From positions 1 to 47,506 of the forward strand of contig JYFJ02002996.1 of the NCBI GenBank assembly GCA_000934665.2: DNA of 47,506 nucleotides, given 5' to 3'. Shown here piece by piece: positions 3,326 through 47,200 of this stretch. The number at the start of each line of letters is the position of its first letter. Positions within the stretch are counted from its first letter, which is position 1. Origin of the DNA: Catajapyx aquilonaris (taxonomy: Eukaryota). The notes beneath the pieces were generated by a model. The model saw only the letters and a program-made list of their open reading frames with translations. It was not told the origin of the DNA and searched no databases. A program made the translations under genes and the position numbers.

Positions 3326-3499
3326 GGCGCATTTATTAGTATAATATAGTGTGTATTGTACACAGCCTATACAGAGCATCTATGCCCTTCTTTTGGAGAT
3401 TTGGACATGGTGTCACCCTACATGAAATTATGTTCAATATTATGTGTTACGAACATGTTCATAGGTCTCCTCGCAATGAAGCAATAACTCCTACGAAGT

Positions 3500-3724: not shown

Positions 3725-4379
3725 AGGACAAACGAATATGCAGGGTGGGGAACAGTGGTCATGTTATTTTTTATCAGGAAGTCCCTGACTATACGCGTGA
3801 GGTTTGTGCAGGCGGCATTGTCATGGTGCAGCAACCAATCTAAAAAAATATATATGTGTTCTTCCACATCTCCGGCCATTTGAGCCTAAATCGTCTCAAA
3901 CCATCCCAGTAGGCCCTAATACTTGCCGTTGACAGTTTTACCAGGAGGGAGAAACTCCATATGCATAATTCCTAAAATGTCAAAGAAAATGATCAGCATT
4001 GAGTTGATTTTGCCGCGAACTTGACGCGCCACCTTCGAAGCTGTTAACCCACTCATATATGTTATTGCTCGTCTTACAACTTGCTTATCAAAAGCCTTGT
4101 TCAGCATTCGGTTGGTTGCATCCGAAGTTTTGTTGAGCTGGAAGCAAAATTTACAAATCTTTTGCTCCCTAACATAAGCGATTTCGAAAAATCGCAGAAT
4201 CACAAGAACACGGTGTCAAGAAAACTGCCGAAACTCGGAAACATGTGCACATATGAAGACGAAATTTTTCAGACTAATAGATGAAAGGTGTACCTAGCGC
4301 CCCCTAACGTCACAAGTCGTACCTCCACTGGATTTCACGGTATATCGACAGTCCGGGAACTTTTTGATCACACCTCGTA
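3725..4379 (-). mobile_element. Decayed, internally deleted mariner (Tc1/mariner) transposon
   Basis: Transposase remnants KICKFCFQLNKT (HTH region), ARQVRGKINSMLIIFFDILGIMHMEFLPPGKTVNGKY and WLLHHDNA...VPHPAYS (mariner HDNA and HPPYSPDL region). One TIR-like end, TACGAGGTGTGATCAAAAAGTTCCCGGAC, at 4379-4351. Confidence 0.9.
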
Positions 4380-4476
4380 CACCTTTAAATTATTTCCGTA
4401 GTTTCCATCGATGTGTGGAAGCCGCAAAGAAAGCATACATTCTCTCAAGGGTTCCAAAAAATTTCACACATCACTT

Positions 4477-27600: not shown

Positions 27601-29211
27601 TCTTTTTCCCCCTGTGAAATATCACTGCCGATTCAAGTCATCGTCAGCTTATTTTTTTTCCAGTTCACAATTTTTTTTCTGGTTCCCCAACTTATGGCGT
27701 TCCGGATGACACACGGCGGAGGACAGATTTCTAAAAAGCCAGTCAAGTGTTCCCTTTTCATGTCAGAAAGTGCAAGCGGAGCAAGATAGAAAAAAATAGT
27801 ACGACTGAACATGAGGCAGAGAATTATCCAAATGCTCTACGATTCTAAGCCTTTCGAGAGGAAGAGTGGGTGGGGAGGGGGTTAGGGGGTGACAAGCCTC
27901 TTGGCCTTTCGCTGTCAGCTTTTACATTTTTAATGTACCGACCCAGCCGTGAAGGCTGTCACTTTTCTTTTCCACCAGACATCACGACACGCTCCGCAGA
28001 GCAAGGCTTTGAAGCCACTGACCAACAATGACGTTTTAGAAAAATTCTCAAAAGAATCGCGGTGTTGCTGAAGTGCTGCGAACTCATTCATATGGACTGG
28101 TATTTGCACTAAACAAAAGTGTCAACTCACCTGTCGTGGTCTCCAAGAGGCAGCACTTCTCCTTCTTTCCTCCACACAATCTGCATAGGAAGGTCACCCT
28201 GTGCCTCGCACAGAAGCACAGCGTTGCTTGCCCTTTTGACGCTCTCTTTCTTCGACTTGACTGCAAATCTCGGCAACGCTGCAACCACAAAAAAAAAATG
28301 TGAAGTGAGAAAAAGAAATAGTGCAAGAAAATTCAATGCACTTCATTGGACTTGGGAGCCCAAAAAAATTGGCGTTCTGTGGATAGAATCGATGCCATAC
28401 GTGCCATTTGAATTCCAGTTGCCCAGTCACGATTGGACATCCCCTACTCCGGAATAAGTGCTTGCACCCACGAGAGAGAGAAAAAAAAACTAGTCCCAAA
28501 CAAGGCTCCCGTCGGGGGAGAATGAGAAATGATCTGCATTTCAAACGGTTATTGAACGCTGCTGGGAATGCAATCAGTTGCAGCCGGTTCCGCCTTCTTC
28601 GTCAACACTTCAGGTTAAGCCTTCATTTTTCATTCGAGGCCCTCTCGATAAATGTGGCTTATTCGCTTGCCAATTATTGTCTGCTGCTTTCCCGGACAAA
28701 ACAACAACAACAAAAAACTAGGACTTGTAATCAATCCGTAGTATACACTATACAAGCGATCATTCAATGTCCTACAGGCCCCCAATCGGGAGCGTATAAT
28801 TTTGGGAGAGGATAATGATATTGGTAGGTCCGTAACAAAGCAAACGGATATCAGTTTACAACCAGCACGAATGAAAATCAAATTTCATCCTTTGTAACGC
28901 GATTGTATAGCTACACACCCCCGTTGTCATATTTTTCCTGCGCCTCACTCTCCACGTCGCGTTAATTAAGCCACGATAATGACAAGCCTCAGGCCTGACC
29001 CAATTTGAAACTGCATTGTTGCTAAGGCTGGCCCAAAATGCAAAGTGCGCAACTGATATGACCTTCCATGTAGAAGTTCGCCTATCTGCGTACCACGGAT
29101 GAGGGTACAGTTCCTTGTGGTGCAGCTGCATCGGTCAGGAGTGCAGTTAGCAAAGGCAGCATTAAAGTTTGCTCTGTTGAGCAACGAACGGAAATCGATC
29201 CCAGGACAGCT

Positions 29212-29268
<57 letters not shown>

Positions 29269-32200
29269 GGGTGCATGCTGGGGGATGGGAAGCGCTCGGG
29301 TTTTGCCTGAGATCGCGCTTGGGCCAGAGCGCACCTGACTTGTCGATAACTCGATAAGGGGATGAAAGCGAAGAGAGATGATCCTATGAAATTAAGTGCG
29401 CGCTGTCTCGCTCTCCCATCCTCATAGACTGGGAGGGAAAATATGAAAAAAAATGGGGACCATGGAGGCAGGGAATCGATTTGGAACAAGAGGATTCAAC
29501 CTTAATTACCAAGAACATGAAGTGCGTGCCCCATGTATTTTCAGCAAAAAGCAACATGCTAAAATTATTATTGGACTTCTGAGAAGTGGGCGACATTTCG
29601 CAAACCTTGCGCTTGCAGCCGGTTCGGTTGACTTATCGCGGGCTATCAAGAATTTGTCAACTTTACTTTCAGGATTACCTATTTCTTACTTGAGCAGGCT
29701 TTCATTCCCTTCTTTATCGTTCCATTACACCCTAAATTACTTGCACTATTTCCTTCGCAAAAGAAGCCTTGAAGGACCAGAGTTCCTCAGAAGAGGGACA
29801 ACTTTCTCATTAAACTCATAGATAACGGTTGGGTACAGTAGAGGAATCTCATAAAGTTTGTTCTAAATTACGCCAAAAATTATGCTCCTTGTGCTCAATA
29901 CCGCCTGTATAGACTGAGGCTAGTAAGAAACTCCCAACCCAACTTTTCATCCTAGATTCCAAAGTTTTAATTGGGATATCATGTTTCTGTATTCAGGCCC
30001 CATCTTTGCTCGCGAAGTTGATTAGTCATTCACTAACTCCAATAAGCTGTCAACAATGCTTCTGGGCCATACCACAAAACCGTTAACCTCATCAACACTA
30101 CATTGTTTTGTCGAGGCCAAGTTGCAACTATTACTAGTGGCTGGATTGGCCCTAAGAAAGTTGCTACCTACTGGTTTCGTGACATTTCTCACATTTTAGA
30201 CTTATATTGGCGGTTTGATGACCTGAACCTTTTTCGCCCTGAGATATGCCAAGACTCGATGCGCCATTAGTATCAAGGCGAGGTGAAGCACGAAACGCTC
30301 TTTGAGAGCATGTCAGGTGTGACATGGTGACAATTTCGTCTGCTGGAGCCGGTTCCGCTCCGTCCTCTGAAAGTGTCTGTAGAGAGAGAGAGACGAGTGG
30401 GAGAGGCAAAAATTATCAAGAAGACGAGGCCTGAAGTGCTGAGTGCCACTTCCCGCCAATGAGCGCAAAAGGAAGTGAATTTCCTGGCTGAGGAGAGGAA
30501 TTAGCGGAATGGGAAAGAGTTGCCTTCTGCTCTCTACTGGAAGAAGTCTCTTCACTCTTTCCAAAAGAAAGACGCACTGATTGACTGCCAAGTTGAGGAT
30601 CAAATTTGCAGGCTGTTCGTGCCGATGGTGCTCAAAAAATGTCCTCTCTCTCTCTCTTTTTAAAATGCATGTGATGACAAATATCGAGCGGCCAGAGTGT
30701 CATTTCACTTTCACGCCGCTCGACATTTATTTTAGGATGTGATATGACGCAGGGTGCACAGTGCTTATCATGAGATGATAGGTGTGGCCCAAATTGATAC
30801 ACAGGTGATTCAACCGCTCTATAAAGTGTGGATGTACTTCGCTGCAACATTTTCATTATTATTTTTTGCACAGAAAATATGAGATTATTTTAACGGCCTG
30901 ACGAATTTGGATGTCAAATATCGATCTGAAAGTGCCATTTTACTTGGTCGCCGTTCATCCGTTTATTTTAGGATGTGCACATATAGGCTCTAATTGTGCG
31001 CCCCACTTATCAGGCGCTGCCACAAGCTGCTACGACAACAACAGCCTCCGAATAGTATTCATGCTCCGGGTAAACAAGCTTATGTTAATTGCATTTACGT
31101 GTATTATAGCTGATCCATCCACCCGCAAAATTCCCCTCCGCAATATGCACACGGGATACAATAATCTTGTAATATTTTGAAGCTTCCTTTTAGCAAAATG
31201 TTAAAAAAATTTCCCGCCCATTTCCTGCTGGAGGGTGCCAGTCCAATAATTACAAATCACGCCAAGCGCGCAAAGGTCCAACTGTGCGTGCTGCTCGCAC
31301 CAACCGGGCCGTAATTAATAACGCTAGTATTTATTACACATCCGAGGGTGCAGCACGATAGTATAAATGGCGGTGGTCAGCAGGTTCTGGTGTCTAGCCC
31401 CCCCCCCCCCACCTTTTTTTTAGCAATGCGATCCTCACCAGCCCGTGCATTCCGCCGAGTGCAGCAATGCTCTCGCGATCATTTGCAATTAGACACAGCG
31501 GGTTACACAGATGCGCAAATTTTTCTGCTCTGCACGACTCGTGGAATGCAGGCATCCGGACACTGCCTCTGGGGACAACCAGGAATTTTTTTCGGAAATT
31601 TTTTTAGTTGCGAAAAAAGGGGGGTAGAGTTGTAATGATTTTCGTATCTAGATCGTAGTGCGGGTAAAAGGCTAATCAAGTGCATGAGTTTGATGCCGTG
31701 GACGGGAACAAAAGTTGAGGATATGCAGGGCCTTTGAAAAGGGGGGATTGTCGCGACCGAAGCTCGGAGTAGAAGGGGCTTGTGTGTGCAGTACAAGCGA
31801 GTGGCATAAAACAAGTTTGCGACAAAGCTAGTGTGCGGGCGTCGAAAGGGAAAGTTTCGGAGGGATAAAGCAATTTTACCTCACTATATGTGCACACTGA
31901 AAAAAAATACCAGGTCGTAAAAAATAATATATCAGTCCATTGCAAATCAAAACTTGTTGCACTTGAGGCAAAGTTAAGAAAATTCTGAGATGAAACTTAT
32001 ATGACGGCAGCATCCTCTCTCAGGAGAGATGCTCGTTTCTAGGCGACCAATTGAGGGCTTTTTGGTCTCTGTGGGCACATACTCCACCGACCTTCCGTCA
32101 AGGTGAGGCCCAGTTAGCCTTATAAAACGGCGGAAACGAGCCAGAACTGTCTAAAAAGCCAGGGTATTCTTGCCATTCAATTCCAGTTCAATAAAGAGCG

Positions 32201-38200: not shown

Positions 38201-41200
38201 TGTACTGTACAGTCATTCAGTTACAGACAGATGATGACCTTACCTTGTGACCTCCTCCAGGCTATTCTTGGAGGCGGGAATCCGTCAGCTTGGCAATGCA
38301 GTGAGATGGTGGAACCCAAGATGGCACTTCGGTCTCTTGGCTCCAGCATCCATTGGGGCGGCACTGTAAGGCAGGCAAATCGATGGGTGGGGCACTTCCT
38401 TCGTTCCAACCACCCGACGAATATTTTAGAGAACGGTTTAAAGGGATGGGGGAGGATAGCAGGCACTCGTGGTGCTTTGCAGAGTTAATTGAGAAAGAGG
38501 ACAGCTAAAAGGGAGGTGGGATTTGGTGAGGTGGAGGGGGGGGGGGCGACAATTCAATTGCTTTAGGCTCAATTAGAAGGAGCTGTGTCCCTTCTATTAA
38601 CTGGTCTTTAGGGGGTAATGCACGGCTAGATCAGATTTGGTGACTGGCACTGCACAAAAATAAGGGAAATGTCACCTCCTTACTCTTAAAGGGCAGAGGG
38701 AAAAAATGTTATGGCGGACCGTACGACTACTCTCGTTCTGCCTAAGGCACTTAAGATAACACCAAATGCGTCAGATACAGGGAGGGAAAGAATAGGGACA
38801 AAAAAATTAATGTCCTGCCAGACCGGACGTCTTCACTGCACTCTTTTGTGCTTTAACATCACACTTTTTTGTGTGTCCAAAGTGCGGGTGGAAGACATGC
38901 GGCTCTGGCAGTCATAAACCCCACTTTTAAATCTACCCTACTGTATATAATAATAATAAAAAAACTTAAAAATCAAATGGGCATAACGCATGCAATGTTA
39001 GTGACTAGTGGATGCAAGGTATGTACGTATGTTCACTACAATAAATTGTATGGACACGTGTTGGTCTTTTGGAGTGTAAAGGCTTCGTGCACCAAGGGTC
39101 TACTGTGCTTTGTGCAATCCCCCTATCTGGTAAATGTTCTAATAGTAAGCTTTTGTAGAGCATTCTCAGCCCGTAAAGCGCATTCCAGCAATAAGCATAT
39201 ATACTTGCATTTAAAAAAATAAAGCCAGGATATCATTTGCATGCCCGGGTTGGATTGAACACTATCCGTACACCGCCTCTCTTGATTCGTTATCTTCCGG
39301 AACGCGACTAATGGCATTTTTAATAAACAACTCGCGGTACGGCCATATCCTAACACTCGTTCGGTTAAACTGCTGGAAATAATGCGGGCATTGCCCGTTG
39401 ATAGCCGCTGGCAAACGTTACAATTACATTAATTCGGCCATGTAAATTACTATTTCAGCCAGAAAGTTACCATCGCAGTCTATTCCGGGTACTTGCGTTG
39501 AATTAGATCTCGCAGCAGCAAACGACTATTAAACTATAACGACCTTAATTGGACTTGAGTACCCGTACATTAAAACTGTAATTTTCAAGTCCCCCTTTTT
39601 TTGTTTTGTGACCTGTCTCCAAGAAAGGCCCATTCATCTCTTGGCACCTGGTACAACACACAAATAAATAAAAGCCCCACGTCTCTTCTTGCATGGAGGC
39701 TGGGAGTGCCTGCGACACCCTATATAACTATCAGCCAGAAGCCAAAGTGACCTTTCTGGCTCTATTCTGGGGGACCGCAGGAAGCCAATTTCGGCAGGGC
39801 TATGAAAGTCCATTACAGGAGGGCCTGAGTTAGGTTTCGGGGAGGCTTCGTACAACGCCTCGTCTGCCCAGCTCGCTCCAAATATTGGCGATTTCTATTC
39901 ACTGGGGGAAGGCGAGCGAATGGTAAATGAAGCCGTTGCCGACTCCATTGAATCGGCCTCTGCCAACTTTTTTTTTTTTTTGCGTGAAACCATAACGTAT
40001 CCATATATATACAACATGGCCGCATATCTCAGGTATATACCCCTAGGGCTTGGGGAAGCCAGCTTTTCATACCGGGGCATGTAAATACCCAGACAGGAAG
40101 ACAAGATAAGCGGGGGGTGGAGATAGGTTCGCTTTTCATGCAGGAGTTGGAGTAGAGGAAATAAAGCTATGCATGCAGAGTGCATTTGGGGGTGGGATTC
40201 TTTTCATATATATATTTTTTAGAGAGAAAGAGAGAAACGTAACGAGTTACAGAAACTCCCAACCACCCAGTTTCATGTGTGAGCACCGCTTGTTGTGCGT
40301 TGTATTTAGTATATAGGTCGCCCGGTCTTTTTTGTCCGTTTGCATGGTTCCTACAAGTGTGATGTGATCACATGACCTGATTTGATATTTTTTTATTATG
40401 CAATATATTTAATTGGAATCGGGCGTTTGCTTGTTTCTGCGTATTTGGAGTTTGGAGGTAAACTACTGTTTGGGAGGAGTGCGATGGAGTTGGTAGAGGA
40501 AAATGAGGGTATCATGCTGGAAAATGTTGGTGAAGGAATGGGGTGAAACAACACACCAAAAGAAGGACACAAATTCGAACACTGGGAATGGTGTAGGGGG
40601 TTAAAACACACAGGTGCACACACTACTGTGCAATGCGTGACGTTTGAGGCAAAGGTGGGCGTGTATGGAAGTGAGGAGGTCACCTGACGTAAAGGCCGTA
40701 ACAGAAAAATAGAAACCGAGCCGGAAAGAAGGACCAAGAAAGGAATGTTATTTAGGGCTGGCGAAGGGTTAAGAAAATGAACGAAAACAGGAAGACACGA
40801 CGTGACTACAGAGAAAGCGACTCAGAGAGATATTATATACAGTATAAAGAGATAGTTATAGATATAGAGAGATAGATAGATAGAGAGCTACAGTAGTGGA
40901 GTACGTTACCACTGATTTTCAACTGTGCAGTGTAGGCAACCTCCCGTGCTGGATTGCGTGCTACGCAAGTGTAGTTCCCATTGTGAACAGGTGAAACGCT
41001 ATTGATGGTGAAAATGCTAGAGTATGTGTTGAAGTCTGTGATGTGAATGTTGTTGTGCTGCGAAGAGTGAAGGGGTTGCGAGTCTTTCATCCAGGTAATC
41101 GTGAGGGGCAGATCCCCGTGCGGCACAATGCACTGCACTTGCACACGTGCACCCTCGGTTAAGTCTTGGAAAGTGAAAGGTGTTATCTCAGGCGGCACTG

Positions 41201-44200
41201 AAAGGTGTATGTAGAAAAAGAAAAAATGTTGTGAGGCATATAAAAATATAGTGCATGGGACACTGCATGGAGTAACTACAGTCAAGTTTCCGGTGCATCA
41301 AGCTGTATAATATACAGTATAATATATAATAGGGGGCCCAATAAAAAAAGAAATAAAGTGACAAGAAAAAAGTCAGAGCTAAAGGCAAGGGGTGTTGACA
41401 AATAAATAATTGTATGTATATAATTATATATAATATATATACGTAGTAGCAACACGAGGGCATATCACACGTTACCATTCACCGACAGCTGAACAGAGTG
41501 TGAAGCTGTGGCTGCATTGTTACGAGCAGTGCACGTGTATGTGCCACTGTGCACCGTGGTCAGATTTTCGATCATGAGCGTGCTGGAATATTCGCCCAAA
41601 CTTTTCACGACAACATCCGGGACTCCTTCCATCGCCTGCTCATCCTTATACCACTCAATGAAGAGAGGAGGATCGCCCTTGGTGACAATGCATTGCAGGT
41701 AGATCCTCTCTCCGAGGTGCAGGTTGTTTTGAATCGTAAAGGGATAAATGCTGGGCGGCTCTGAAAGTAAGTAAAGAGAAAGGCCCTCGTGCATACACAA
41801 ACACTTGTTACCCCACATTTCATTCAGTCCTCCTTAGAAAGAAACCGAAAAAAAGTCCCCCAAGCCTTTGCTCAGTCGGCACTCACTATACTCCGGCGCA
41901 GCTTGTAGTCTCCTAGCAGTAGATTAGTCGAGTTTGTAAAGAAACTTTTTTTTCTGAGACGGCATGCTGCACGGGCGGAGAAGGTAACTTTCTTTTACAG
42001 CTTCCCACCACTTGGCTAACCAGCAGGGTTAGGCCATGCTATAAACATGTTTGTCTTTTTCTCAGCACAGGAGCGTCTAACGTTTACTTCCAATCGATAG
42101 ACCCCGACCACACAACACTTTGTTTTACCAGGAGCCAATAGCAGTGCTGGTGCAATGACATTGTTTTCCATTATTTTAGCAAATGTGTTCGGGCCACAAA
42201 TGTATCACCCATTCATTATACGTGGGGCTGCGTACATTCCGGTGCAACAAACCGTTTCTGTACAAACTGGACTCAAACAAACTGGAAAATAAACAGGCTA
42301 CATTATGTTTACCTTACTCGTAATGACTCTACATTACACGTCCGCCGTATCTGTCACAAGAGTAAATACATGCCCATAATGTCCACAAGGCTAGTGACAG
42401 AATCGGCGGCAACATTGACATTACATGAACAAGCAGCATCAGAGCGCCAATTATATTATACACATTACGATATTTTACTGCAGTAAATGCGGATCTTGCC
42501 TTGTACACCATAATATTTCCATTGGTGTGATACAAAATTATGCGGTTTGATCCGAAAGTTACCGCAATATCAGGATTGTTTATTCTAGCAATATTCGCTT
42601 GTGGTCGTCACTTCTCTGGAATAAACAATCCGCAAATTTTTCCCTCTCTTGGACTGCGACTTGGGCAGAGCTTTTTCTCCACAGTGAACTCGCTGGAGAC
42701 CTTTCAACACCAACCATCTCCGTCAATTTGACCGTGAAACCCTAGTTAATCAGCCTCAAAACGGCAGACTTTCCCGTCTCCACATAACCGTCAAGCCCAA
42801 AGTCGTCATCACTCTAACAAGAAACCGTGGGTCTTACTTGCTCCTGCTTTCAAATGGCCCGCGTCAGTAGTAGTAATAACACTGGAGAGACTTAGTCCTT
42901 TTAAGTGACGGAGACAAAGTAATGGAGATGATGAGAACCGGAAGCACTCATAGTCGCCCCAATCAAGTGTCCCACACCTGCAAGCACCATCAGTTTGAGC
43001 TATTAAGCGCCACGAACCGCTCGTTAGTTTGGACAAGGCAGAGGCCTCTCCTCGAAGCCACAATTCCCACTCGGAGCGTCGTATGTCATGGCAGACAATG
43101 ACGGAAATTGTCTTATCATCCGGGACGCGACCCCCCCTTTTGGTTAAAGGTTGTGGTCCCGGAAACTTCCAGTTCCATAAAAACCAATACCGGCAACTCT
43201 GCCAATATTGACAGCAAGATGTCTGCCGGAAATGGGCCAGATTGCCAGATAAATTTTGGGGGGGTTGGCACATGTGGCCAAAAACTGGTGGCAAGAAACA
43301 AGCCGCAACGAATCAATAGGTGATGAGTCGTTAACTTCTAATACGACCCTATACCCACACTAATTTAGAGTTTAGATTTGGAAGCGATAATCGGTGTGCG
43401 GTTGCAAACTGTAATGGAAACCATTCCAATTACGTTTCAAAAAAGACGCTTAGTTTCCGAATTTATAGCCAATCCTCACTCACTCTGTAACAGTCGATAA
43501 AAACGTAATGATCAAACCACAATGATAACGATTGGATGCAGACTCTAGGGAGGGAAGCGAGATTATCCATTAGCAATTGTTATTCAAACATTCCCGCAAT
43601 CGTGCCAGGATTTGATATCCAAAAAAAACTAGAGAAGGGCGAGAGAAAGAAGGAAAAAAGGATAAAAGATTCTCAGGGATCTGAACTGCTTCCAGAGGCC
43701 TACCAATTTCGGTTAGGCGAGATTAAATGGCGCCAAGGCTCGTTCAATTCTCTTCTTCTGTCTTTACAGATCTCATTTTGGAGAGAGCAGGGCTCGCTCT
43801 TTTTCCAAGAGACAATTCTTATATGAGATGGGTATCCCTTCTCTCACTTTTTTTCTTTCCTTCTCAAGCAGACGCGATTAATAAAGAAAATCCTAGAAAT
43901 TTGTAAGTTCCCGAAAGATAGGTTACAGCCTCATAAATATACCGGCGGTCATTTTCCGCGACGCAAATTAGACGTCCTTTTGCACAACTGACGTGCAATA
44001 ATTTCTTTTTAGGGACTAGGTATTTTCAAAAAAAAAAGGCTTGCTCGACTCCCACAATCCATCTTCCGTAAGCGTTTACTTTTCTCCTGACGTAAATCCA
44101 ATATCTCCATCTGACTTACGGCTTAATGTTCATGCAAACGGCCTATTGTCATTCTGACACACACACAAAAAAAGAGCGCGGTACGGACCATCTGGGACAT

Positions 44201-47200
44201 CTCTTGAGTCGCTATTCATGCATGCCTTGTACTTGAGAACATTTCGATACAAATAGGGCGAGCTCGAACTAGACGCGACCCGCTGCGACTCGAGACAAAG
44301 ATGAACGACGTTGGATATGAAATTAATCGTTTCTTTTCAGTTTAGGATCAAGGTGACAAATTGCTCCGTCGAGTCGAGTCAAGAAAAGAGGGGGAGCGAA
44401 AAACTCGAAAATTCCTTTTTGAAAAAAAATAATAGTTCCGGACGAAATGCACTTTGATCATTAAAGGCTTAAAAAATTGTGGCGGAAAGTGTTAGTGAAG
44501 ACATCAAGTTGGCTTGTTGAGTAATAGACTCACCCATGATTGCCACATCGACACTACCACGTGCTGCGTGTCCCTGTCGGTTTCGAGCCTCGCATGTGTA
44601 CGTCCCTTTGTCCACCTTTTGCTGGACGTTCTGAATGGCCAGAGTTCCGTTCTTGGACACTCTCTGGCGATGATTGACCGGAAGCTGTCGGGCATCTGGA
44701 AATAAACATGTCAACTACATTTACCAGAACGAAAAAAATGCATAAATGTCACAAAAATATTATTACGGACAAGCATAAAATTCACAAGAGAGGGACAGTG
44801 TGGGTATGATTCACTCATTGTTTTTCATGTGGTTTGACGTCAATGTGACAAGGCTCAGCACTCTCAGTAGTCTGAAAGTGGGTCAGGTAGCCCGGACCTA
44901 TACACATACTTTCCTATTTATACTGTAAGAGATATGATAAAAAAATGTTAAATTTCGAAGCACTTTCACCACAGCTCTGGTTTTTCTGAGACATGCTGTA
45001 CGCGAAGATATTGTCGCCTAGTGTAATGATTGATTGCGGAGAATAATGTGGTTTAGTGATGAGCTCTCGTTTACCCGACGGATTAATCGACTTGAGAGGC
45101 CGAACGTGATAATGGAACCGGCGTTGGTGAGCATCAATTGACGGATTAAACAGCTTGGCAATTTCCTTTACGCGCTTGCAAGCGACGGTTTTTGTAATTG
45201 GGGAATGAAGGGAGGAAGGCCTGCAAGAATGCCTGAACAGTTACTTGGTCAGTTAGTGTAATGAGTGCTCACATGGTCGAAAATCCTCGACAGACTTGAC
45301 GCCTGGCAAATGAGAGCGCAATTTCCTCGCCCAAACACAAGGTCGGTCCCCCGCAAGCGTTGGCTGTTTTCACTGTCCCCCCCTGCTACTACAGTACCCT
45401 CTCTCTGGGTTCCAAACTCGTTTAATTCCCAGCCTAGGATTGAGGCCAGATTGAAGGCGGTCCGAACACTCCTTGCCAACAACGGCTCAATATATGCAGT
45501 CCAGTAATCAGCTGGTGGGGACCTGTTAGTTAGCGCACTACTTCACAATTTCCGCAAAATCTAGTTACCTACATGAAGTTCGCATATTCAGCCCGGACCT
45601 GCAGGACGTGCTGCAGAAGCTAATCTTAAGTTCATAATGGTGTACTGTCCACGAGTAAAAACTTGGTCTGGGATTTGGTCAATTTGTACGCGAATAGCTC
45701 AACCTTGAGCTCAACCATATACCCATCAACAATCCGCGATATAATAAATTACCGCGGATTTAAAAGTCACTCAAATTGGCGGGACGAATTGGGCGTGGCC
45801 TAAAAGGCGCATTCCCACTCATGCCTGACCACAGTGACGTCAGCAGACCAGCTTTACTGGCTCAACATGGTAAACACACAGTTTAAAAACATGCAGTTTT
45901 ATCCCTCAAAAAATGTGGCACGATAAGACGCAGCTATCTTTGGTAGGCGAGGATGGCATCGAGGGGCCCGTTTGTCTGGTTGACATACCGCAGTAGGGGT
46001 CCTGATACTGGAGCCTCGTCACGTGCACCGAGCTCGTTTCCATGGATGAGCTTTGCTCCTGGTTTACACCTAAGGGCAGCATCCAAACGCCGGGAATGGA
46101 CACAGGACTTGCCACTTAGTGATTATGACATGGACATTGCGGGGCCCCACATTTCTCGTTAAAGTGGTCCCGAAAAGTGATAAAATTTGCTGCACACGTG
46201 CTGCTCGTCAATGGACCACCATATACTGGTGGGTGCAGTATTGAAACGACGTGTTTGACGCCCCTCGGTGCCTGCAACTCCCCAGCTACTCATCTCTCTC
46301 GGACCCCCACCAAATAGTGTTGTGCAAACTTGTATAACCAGGCACGAGCCTACCATTGTGGCCGGCTAATTATGCTCAAAGTGCGAACATGCCGCGTACA
46401 GATAACCGGCTAGCAAACTTTCCCTTCGGAAATGGTTAGGCCTTATAAGTAAGAAAGGCGTCCCCTTTAATATGTCCATGATGTCGCGGAAATGCAATCA
46501 TATTTCAGGACCGCTACGGCTCCGGACTTACTTAGCCAGCATTTGCATTCCAATAGGACACAAGGCTCGTAATTGGAGGGGGGGCTGCTGCAATAAGTAG
46601 AGAGTTGGGCATCGTCCATTTAATTCCATTCCGTCCCTAGGGCGCGTCCATGTAAGTGCTATTTGCCTGTAGCAGTAGCTACAGGACAAGGTGCGATTTT
46701 ATAATTTCACTAAAAACAGCGCACTTTATTCAATACGCATAGTGTCCTATAGGTAGGACACTTGTGCAAATGTTACATTTTTGGTTAAATTACTAGTGAA
46801 CCAGGTGACAAATCAGTATGACACTGACAATCAAACAACTTGAATGAGATGGCCTGCCGATTTACCATGTAGTACTATTATTTACTCACATATGGCGCAT
46901 ATTCCCTTTGCACACTCAGGTCGGACAAACATCCGACGGAAAGAACAAGCCGATTAGGATAAATATGTTATTTCTTCATTCGTTAATAAAATTGCTATTT
47001 CTTCATTAGTTAATAAAATTGCTATTTCTTCATTAGTTAATAAAATTGCTATTTCTTCATTCGTTAATAAAATTGCTATTTCTTCATTCGTTAATAAAAT
47101 TGCTATTTCTTCATTCGTTAATAAAATTGTTATTATTTCTTCATTTGTTAATAAAAATTTTAAAAGTTAAAAAGAGTCAGCTGTTGATTGAAGTTTGGTC

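Follow-up and report, generated by a model that had tools for sequence, protein, structure and literature searches.

How does a gene that carries two versions of one domain settle on one of them? The question is raised by a 47,506-nt stretch of the Catajapyx aquilonaris genome (contig JYFJ02002996.1, here called the window, whose numbering is used throughout), on whose minus strand lies most of a gene of the DSCAM family, by its sequence an insect Dscam2 orthologue. The whole of immunoglobulin domain 7 (Ig7) is encoded twice, in tandem exons of similar length that both run from phase 1 to phase 1: exon A (285 nt, 41476–41760) and exon B (288 nt, 40910–41197). A preliminary description of this DNA had proposed that complementary intron elements bracket exon A and could loop it out. 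We find that exon A is indeed bracketed by two such elements that are predicted to pair, S1 and D1, and that a larger imperfect duplex around the same exon, Stem L, is new here. We tentatively propose that RNA structure, in the form of one or both helices, loops out exon A in the manner described for srp and ATE1, a model to which we give just under an even chance.

The cores of the two inner elements, sense CACGAGGGC at 41791–41783 and GCCCTCGTG at 41461–41453, are exact reverse complements, as had been claimed, and neither has another exact copy within the window. Exon A occupies 41760–41476 with its acceptor AG at 41762–41761 and its donor GT at 41475–41474 (GTAACG), so the S1 core lies 23–31 nt before the exon and the D1 core 15–23 nt past its donor, in agreement with the distances first given. 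The earlier estimate of a helix of about 13 bp was roughly right: with G-U pairs and two single-base bulges, the pairing of 41798–41783 with 41461–41446 extends to about 15 bp, consisting of a 10-bp core that includes G41792-U41452, a bulged U41793, three pairs joining 41794–41796 to 41451–41449, a bulged U41448, and two final pairs. The complete upstream arm, S1 (41783–41798), is located 23–38 nt before exon A, and the complete downstream arm, D1 (41446–41461), starts 15 nt past the exon A donor. Reading of the sequence also confirmed that D1 adjoins an AT-rich stretch, and placed two YGCY-type motifs, UGCC (41462–41459) and UGCU (41451–41448), on or beside it. The suggestion that the stem masks the branch region found no support in the sequence. 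The branch-point consensus is yUnAy, and the nearest candidates for such a site before the exon A acceptor lie at about −48 (UAAC) and at −12/−8 (UUUAC/CUUAC); S1 contains no branch-like motif and sits between UAAC and the polypyrimidine tract of exon A.

Several controls measured how far this arrangement departs from chance. With 40-nt flanks, the duplex across exon A has an energy of −24.7 kcal/mol compared to a shuffled mean of −11.9 (standard deviation 2.9), a value matched by none of 300 shuffles (z about −4.5); repeats of the test returned z-scores of −4.6 and −5.1, and wider flanks of 60 and 100 nt gave −4.0 and −3.2, respectively. Among 2,548 random pairs of 40-nt segments drawn from the window at the same 285-nt spacing, 49 reached −24.7 kcal/mol and 15 contained an exact complement of at least 9 nt. 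Exon A was the strongest of 11 exons of this gene tested, the other ten (with approximate boundaries) ranging from −4.4 to −17.4 kcal/mol with longest exact matches of 4–6 nt. Only the 40-nt energy and the exact-match length separate exon A from other exons in this way, as 80-nt flank energies fail to set it apart (−33.8 for exon A, down to −35.6 for others). When the upstream intron in its full length is set against the first 100 nt of the A-B intron, no contiguous helix is stronger than S1-D1, which was equalled in 3 of 200 shuffles. Exact 9-nt inverted repeats are frequent, with 63 pairs in 7 kb, and 7 of 70 shuffled D1 20-mers found an equally good partner somewhere in the 2.8-kb upstream intron. 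What is rare is thus where the helix lies, close up to the two splice sites of an alternative exon, and not the helix itself.

The stem is stable in predicted folds. The nine core pairs had probabilities of 0.76–1.0 in five sequence contexts of 361–1401 nt and likewise in a 1951-nt fold, and the 10-bp core is present in both the minimum-free-energy (MFE) and the centroid structures. The 361-nt segment as a whole folds with a z-score of −2.36, and 1 of 100 shuffles folds equally well.

The second duplex emerged when 40-nt windows of the upstream intron were paired in turn with those of the A-B intron. The upstream arm of Stem L (42929–42990) lies 1.17–1.23 kb upstream of the exon A acceptor, and its downstream arm (41248–41300) lies in the A-B intron, 50–102 nt before the exon B acceptor. 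The best pair of 40-nt windows has an energy of −41.6 kcal/mol, compared to −29.4 for the next independent pair; none of 33 shuffled A-B introns reached this value, their minima falling between −24.0 and −30.8 save for a single shuffle that is considered below. The full duplex has a predicted energy of −53.8 to −55.9 kcal/mol and 47 pairs (41 Watson-Crick and 6 G-U). In the 1951-nt fold, Stem L is nested around S1-D1, with 37 of 45 checked pairs present in the MFE structure and a median pair probability of 0.92. The sense duplex is predicted at −53.8 kcal/mol and the antisense duplex at −45.8 kcal/mol. The G-rich upstream arm has a rival partner elsewhere that is nearly as good (−52.1). Inspection of the A-B intron further identified a candidate exon B branch site, CUCAC (A at 41232), 12–16 nt past the downstream arm.

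In the loop-out model, exon A would be enclosed in the pre-mRNA by two nested intron-intron helices. The inner helix, S1-D1, GC-rich and 10–15 bp long, would close a loop of about 320 nt, positioned at the polypyrimidine tract of exon A and 15 nt past its weak GTAACG donor. The outer helix, Stem L, imperfect and about 45 bp long, would connect sequence 1.2 kb upstream of exon A with that immediately preceding the branch and acceptor region of exon B. With the helices closed, exon A would be looped, with its splice sites held in or beside a helix, and the exon B acceptor would be brought nearer the upstream donor, so that exon B would be used; with the helices open, exon A would be usable. The analysis establishes the sequences, positions, positional rarity, and predicted stability of the helices; from these we infer that the helices may form in vivo, may lower the use of exon A, and may be linked to Muscleblind. 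The donors of both alternative exons are weak and non-consensus (GTAACG/GTAACG), those of the neighboring constitutive exons being GTGAGT and GTAAGG, which fits the expectation for regulated exons and counts in favor of the model.

A more elaborate version would have the Dscam2 Ig7 choice set by an RNA double lock, made up of a GC clamp and a long-range duplex that presents exon B, with Muscleblind selecting exon B through the YGCY motifs on D1 and so stabilizing the closed state. We regard this version as very unlikely; if true, it would unite protein-based with structure-based explanations of mutually exclusive splicing.

To compare the architecture across relatives, we used one metagenome scan that yielded nine orthologous loci from three distant lineages (L001–L004, L005–L007, and L008–L009); scans of genome contigs and of viral contigs found no orthologous loci. 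The Ig6-A-B layout and exon phases are identical to those of the window in 9 of 9 loci. Exon A in these loci shares 49–58% identity with exon A of the window, and the introns therefore cannot be aligned to it, leaving a comparison of architecture only. Between L001–L004 and L005–L007, the introns are about 94% identical.

This comparison, together with several properties of the helices themselves, weighs against loop-out of exon A. The 40-nt flanks of exon A in the three lineages display no significant complementarity (z of 0.17, 0.02, and −1.0, equalled by 157, 147, and 41 of 300 shuffles, respectively), the 80-nt flanks give z-scores of −0.75, 0.0, and −1.3, and the best long-range helices fall within chance (36, 23, and 16 of 200 shuffles). 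The case for the stem is confined to a single genome, and since three distant lineages have no equivalent, the stem would be lineage-specific if functional. Clade-specific pairing elements have been described for Dscam1, so such restriction counts against the model without refuting it. Beyond the comparison, older work on exon-looping hairpins suggests that a core of 9–10 bp is short to act in vivo across a loop of 320 nt. The nearest shuffle to Stem L, at −39.1, is within 2.5 kcal/mol of its −41.6, and a wobble strand bias is not evident in the Stem L arms, where 4 G-U-type and 2 A-C-type differences are too few to be informative. The equal partners found by shuffled D1 queries belong here as well, as does the failure to find a stem around exon B, whose flank duplexes have z-scores of −0.9 to −1.5. 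The proposal in the preliminary description that exon A is sequestered in favor of exon B is therefore upheld in part: the stem is real, lies close to both splice sites, persists in folds, is enclosed by a second duplex, and has a precedent in srp, but the three lineages have no comparable stem (z of 0.2 to −1.3). Its present value is that of a testable lead, a single-genome prediction in a non-model insect that is absent from three distant orthologues.

Many of these same results bear on the alternative that the 9-mer pair and the looser outer duplex arose by chance in the introns and leave splicing unaffected, and that proteins such as Muscleblind, acting at other sites, choose the exon, which we regard as a real possibility, though short of an even chance. 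Chance complementarity would account for the 63 inverted pairs with 9-nt seeds in the 7-kb region, for the 7 of 70 shuffled D1 queries, for the shuffle that comes close to Stem L, and for the lack of an analogue in three orthologous lineages. About 0.6–1.9% of random positions do equally well, and the 47-kb window had been scanned for such features; moreover, the known Drosophila regulator is a protein (PMC6357765). Chance is less easily reconciled with a pair that reaches no farther than 31 nt and 23 nt from the splice sites of an exon that is one of just two alternatives, with the rank of exon A above all others of the 11 exons tested, with an independent second duplex that encloses the same exon with the same polarity, or with the retention of the S1-D1 stem in every fold context tried.

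An origin in mobile DNA concerns the outer helix specifically: Stem L may be the decayed inverted repeat of a transposon. Treated as DNA, its arms have a weak inverted similarity, with a local alignment score of 29, compared to 21.4±2.9 for shuffles, of which the maximum was 39. Neither arm has a further copy in the window, and the intron open reading frames (ORFs) contain no Pfam transposon domain; on balance, these results speak neither for nor against this origin.

It is very unlikely that S1 and D1 are copies of a short protein-binding motif, acting on DNA independently of orientation or on RNA, and are not pairing partners. The 11-mer CACGAGGGCCT does occur four times within 3.4 kb (38461–41791) in both orientations; allowing at most one mismatch, there are 4 matches compared to 0.57 expected, and at least 4 were seen in 1 of 100 shuffles. 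The flanks of the four copies have nothing else in common, so they do not represent a dispersed repeat, and CACGAG would be compatible with a binding site of the N-box/class-C type for Hairy/E(spl) factors. However, the stem arms account for two of the four matches, and each of the other two copies contains a mismatch. A further alternative, that the flanking complements drive exon A into a 285-nt circular RNA by back-splicing, with linear skipping of exon A as a by-product, is hardly credible: the geometry fits, with intronic complements bracketing a single exon beside both splice sites, and intronic complements favor circularization, but the S1 and D1 arms are far shorter than the ∼30–40 nt reported to be sufficient in reporter studies.

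Loop-out of exon A, if it occurs, would lack the counterpart expected of a full switch. Apart from the exon B flanks, pairing of the A-B intron with the downstream intron reaches −26.2 at best, within the range of shuffle minima (−24.2 to −29.8); with no stem around exon B, the competing second pairing of a two-stem srp/ATE1 switch is missing. The extra copies of CACGAGGGCCT supply two further possible partners. S2, an S1-like element (GCACCACGAGUGCCU, 38461–38475) about 100 nt before the Ig8 exon acceptor, could pair with D1 (−17.6 kcal/mol). The sequence match is uncommon, with about 0.8 such 13-mer matches expected per window, and yet S2 was rejected as a competing D1 partner on energy, as 38 of 70 shuffled queries did equally well. 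D2, a second D1-like element (sense AGGCCCUCCUG, 39816–39826), is located in the B-Ig8 intron; its pairing with S1 has an energy of −21.5 kcal/mol, which 2 of 70 shuffled queries equalled, and it is a weak candidate.

Two other pairings were noted in the same introns. An AU-rich 14-mer, TACTGTATATAATA, is found at 40844–40831, 66–79 nt past the exon B donor, with a 13/14 copy at 41319–41306 in the A-B intron. Both copies are complementary to 38952–38939, 575 nt before the Ig8 exon, the copy behind exon B perfectly over 14 nt, in a layout that resembles one docking site and a selector behind each alternative exon; the sequence is of low complexity, and 4 of 60 Markov simulations produced a 14-nt inverted pair. 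Separately, GGCUUGGGGGA and UUCCCCAAGCC (41866–41856 with 40057–40047) could form an 11-bp helix of −19.9 kcal/mol that would hold both Ig7 exons together in its loop; among contiguous helices joining the introns on either side of the exon pair, it ranks first.

The orthologous loci have features of their own. The A-B intron is only 52 nt long in L008 (420–471) and L009 (1502–1553), with candidate branch sites about 22–26 nt from the donor; an intron this short would hinder A-to-B joining, which may be blocked in these loci by crowding rather than by RNA pairing. In L001, GCAC/UGCAC repeats crowd the introns by exons A and B (2515–2620, 3340–3400, and 4340–4448), likewise in L006, and both loci have a GU-rich stretch about 400–480 nt upstream of exon A that is complementary to these repeats. 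An 11-bp helix of GGGUGUGAAGU with ACUUCRCACCC brackets exon A in L001 and L006, where a G-to-A difference between lineages turns a G-U pair into A-U. Neither the repeat pairings nor this helix exceeds shuffles. Non-consensus donors of exons A and B are found in all four lineages, as GTAACG/GTAACG in the window (41475–41470 and 40909–40904) and as GTACCG/GTAACT and GTACTT/GTAATG in the relatives (L001, 3290–3295 and 4725–4730; L009, 1502–1507 and 1851–1856).

The assignment of the gene and its exons is based on protein comparisons. The large 3′ exon matches the Pfam family FN3_DSCAM-DSCAML_C (5e-34), and a full-length protein annotated as "Dscam2 isoform X2" (P0005) aligns with the window exon by exon. 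The exons flanking the Ig7 pair are constitutive: the upstream one (44534–44695) encodes the second half of Ig6, ends in phase 1 at a donor GT at 44533–44532, and shares 60% identity with P0005 residues 593–645, and the downstream one (38244–38363, acceptor AG at 38365–38364) encodes the first half of Ig8. From these limits and those of exons A and B, the introns measure 2773 nt (Ig6-A), 278 nt (A-B), and 2546 nt (B-Ig8). Exon A matches Pfam Ig_3/I-set and is 74% and 73% identical to the first Ig7 copy of proteins P0002 and P0003, respectively; exon B, which has the same phase and a GTAACG donor, is 75% identical to the single Ig7 of P0005. The top protein matches of both exons are insect proteins. 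A-like and B-like Ig7 domains stand in tandem in P0002, P0003, and P0004, which may be gene-model artefacts, while P0005 has the B type alone, and none of these matched proteins (P0002–P0005) is an A-only product. As judged by alignment, exons A and B are the positional match of the Drosophila Dscam2 exon pair 10A/10B. In a search of sequencing runs, 0.24 of the sampled words were present in one RNA run (X5).

Elsewhere in the window, no known RNA families from Rfam were found. In the ORF listings, a tandem repeat at 46954–47170 translates on both strands into an 8-residue peptide unit that recurs, and a microsatellite of the (CT/GA)n type lies at about 29160–29310, each in an intron or flank. 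The random-pair control also brought out a perfect inverted repeat of 31–34 nt (∼1999–2038 and ∼2327–2366), whose arms are separated by about 285 nt and which may represent the ends of a small mobile element.

How does the predicted arrangement compare to known systems? In Dscam1, a docking site is reported to pair with selector sequences in the exon 6 cluster, and pairing of this kind is said to extend to the exon 4 and 9 clusters. The downstream arm of Stem L, just upstream of the exon B branch site and acceptor, is placed as a selector is said to be, with its partner in the intron upstream of the cluster. Here, however, there would be a single selector and not one for each exon, a distance of 1.5 kb separates its partner from the upstream donor, and the gene is Dscam2.

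In Drosophila Dscam2 itself, the two Ig7 isoforms are used cell-type-specifically in the wiring of fly neurons, and Muscleblind, the only regulator known for this gene, represses exon 10A; its authors describe the pre-mRNA sequences involved as unmapped and the RNA-level mechanism as unknown (Li and Millard 2019, PMC6357765). The gene family and the Ig7 exon pair are the same, and in both cases the upstream exon is the one repressed, or here predicted to be (PMC6357765). The difference is that the Drosophila regulator is a protein, with no RNA structure reported in the part of the paper available, whereas we predict a structure in another insect. Among the papers returned by full-text literature searches, none ties Dscam2 to docking sites, selectors, or RNA pairing.

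Human ATE1 exons 7a/7b provide a case in which elements R1 and R4 are reported to compete for R3 (PMC7797038). Similarly, the inter-exon element D1 could pair to either side, having in S2 a second S1-like partner about 100 nt before the next constitutive exon, but unlike in ATE1 the D1-S2 energy is no better than chance (38/70).

The closest precedent with experimental tests is the bidirectional RNA pairing at exons 4.1 and 4.2 of Drosophila serpent (srp), where an element upstream of 4.1 pairs with a partner in the intron that separates the two exons (Yue et al. 2016, RNA 22:96, PMC4691838). Disruption of this stem I lowers the use of 4.2 and compensatory mutations restore it, the exon in the loop is suppressed, and the effects scale with stem strength (PMC4691838). 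In srp, a second stem around 4.2 favors 4.1, and the four pairing elements show conservation among Drosophila species, whereas we found no stem around exon B and the present elements come from one genome; on the other hand, two nested stems surround exon A here. The two systems are alike in having two mutually exclusive exons, the first in a loop and the second favored, which in the present case is predicted from the sequence. If loop-out of exon A proves true, it would provide a concrete cis-element for Dscam2 and extend the srp-type mechanism to this gene.

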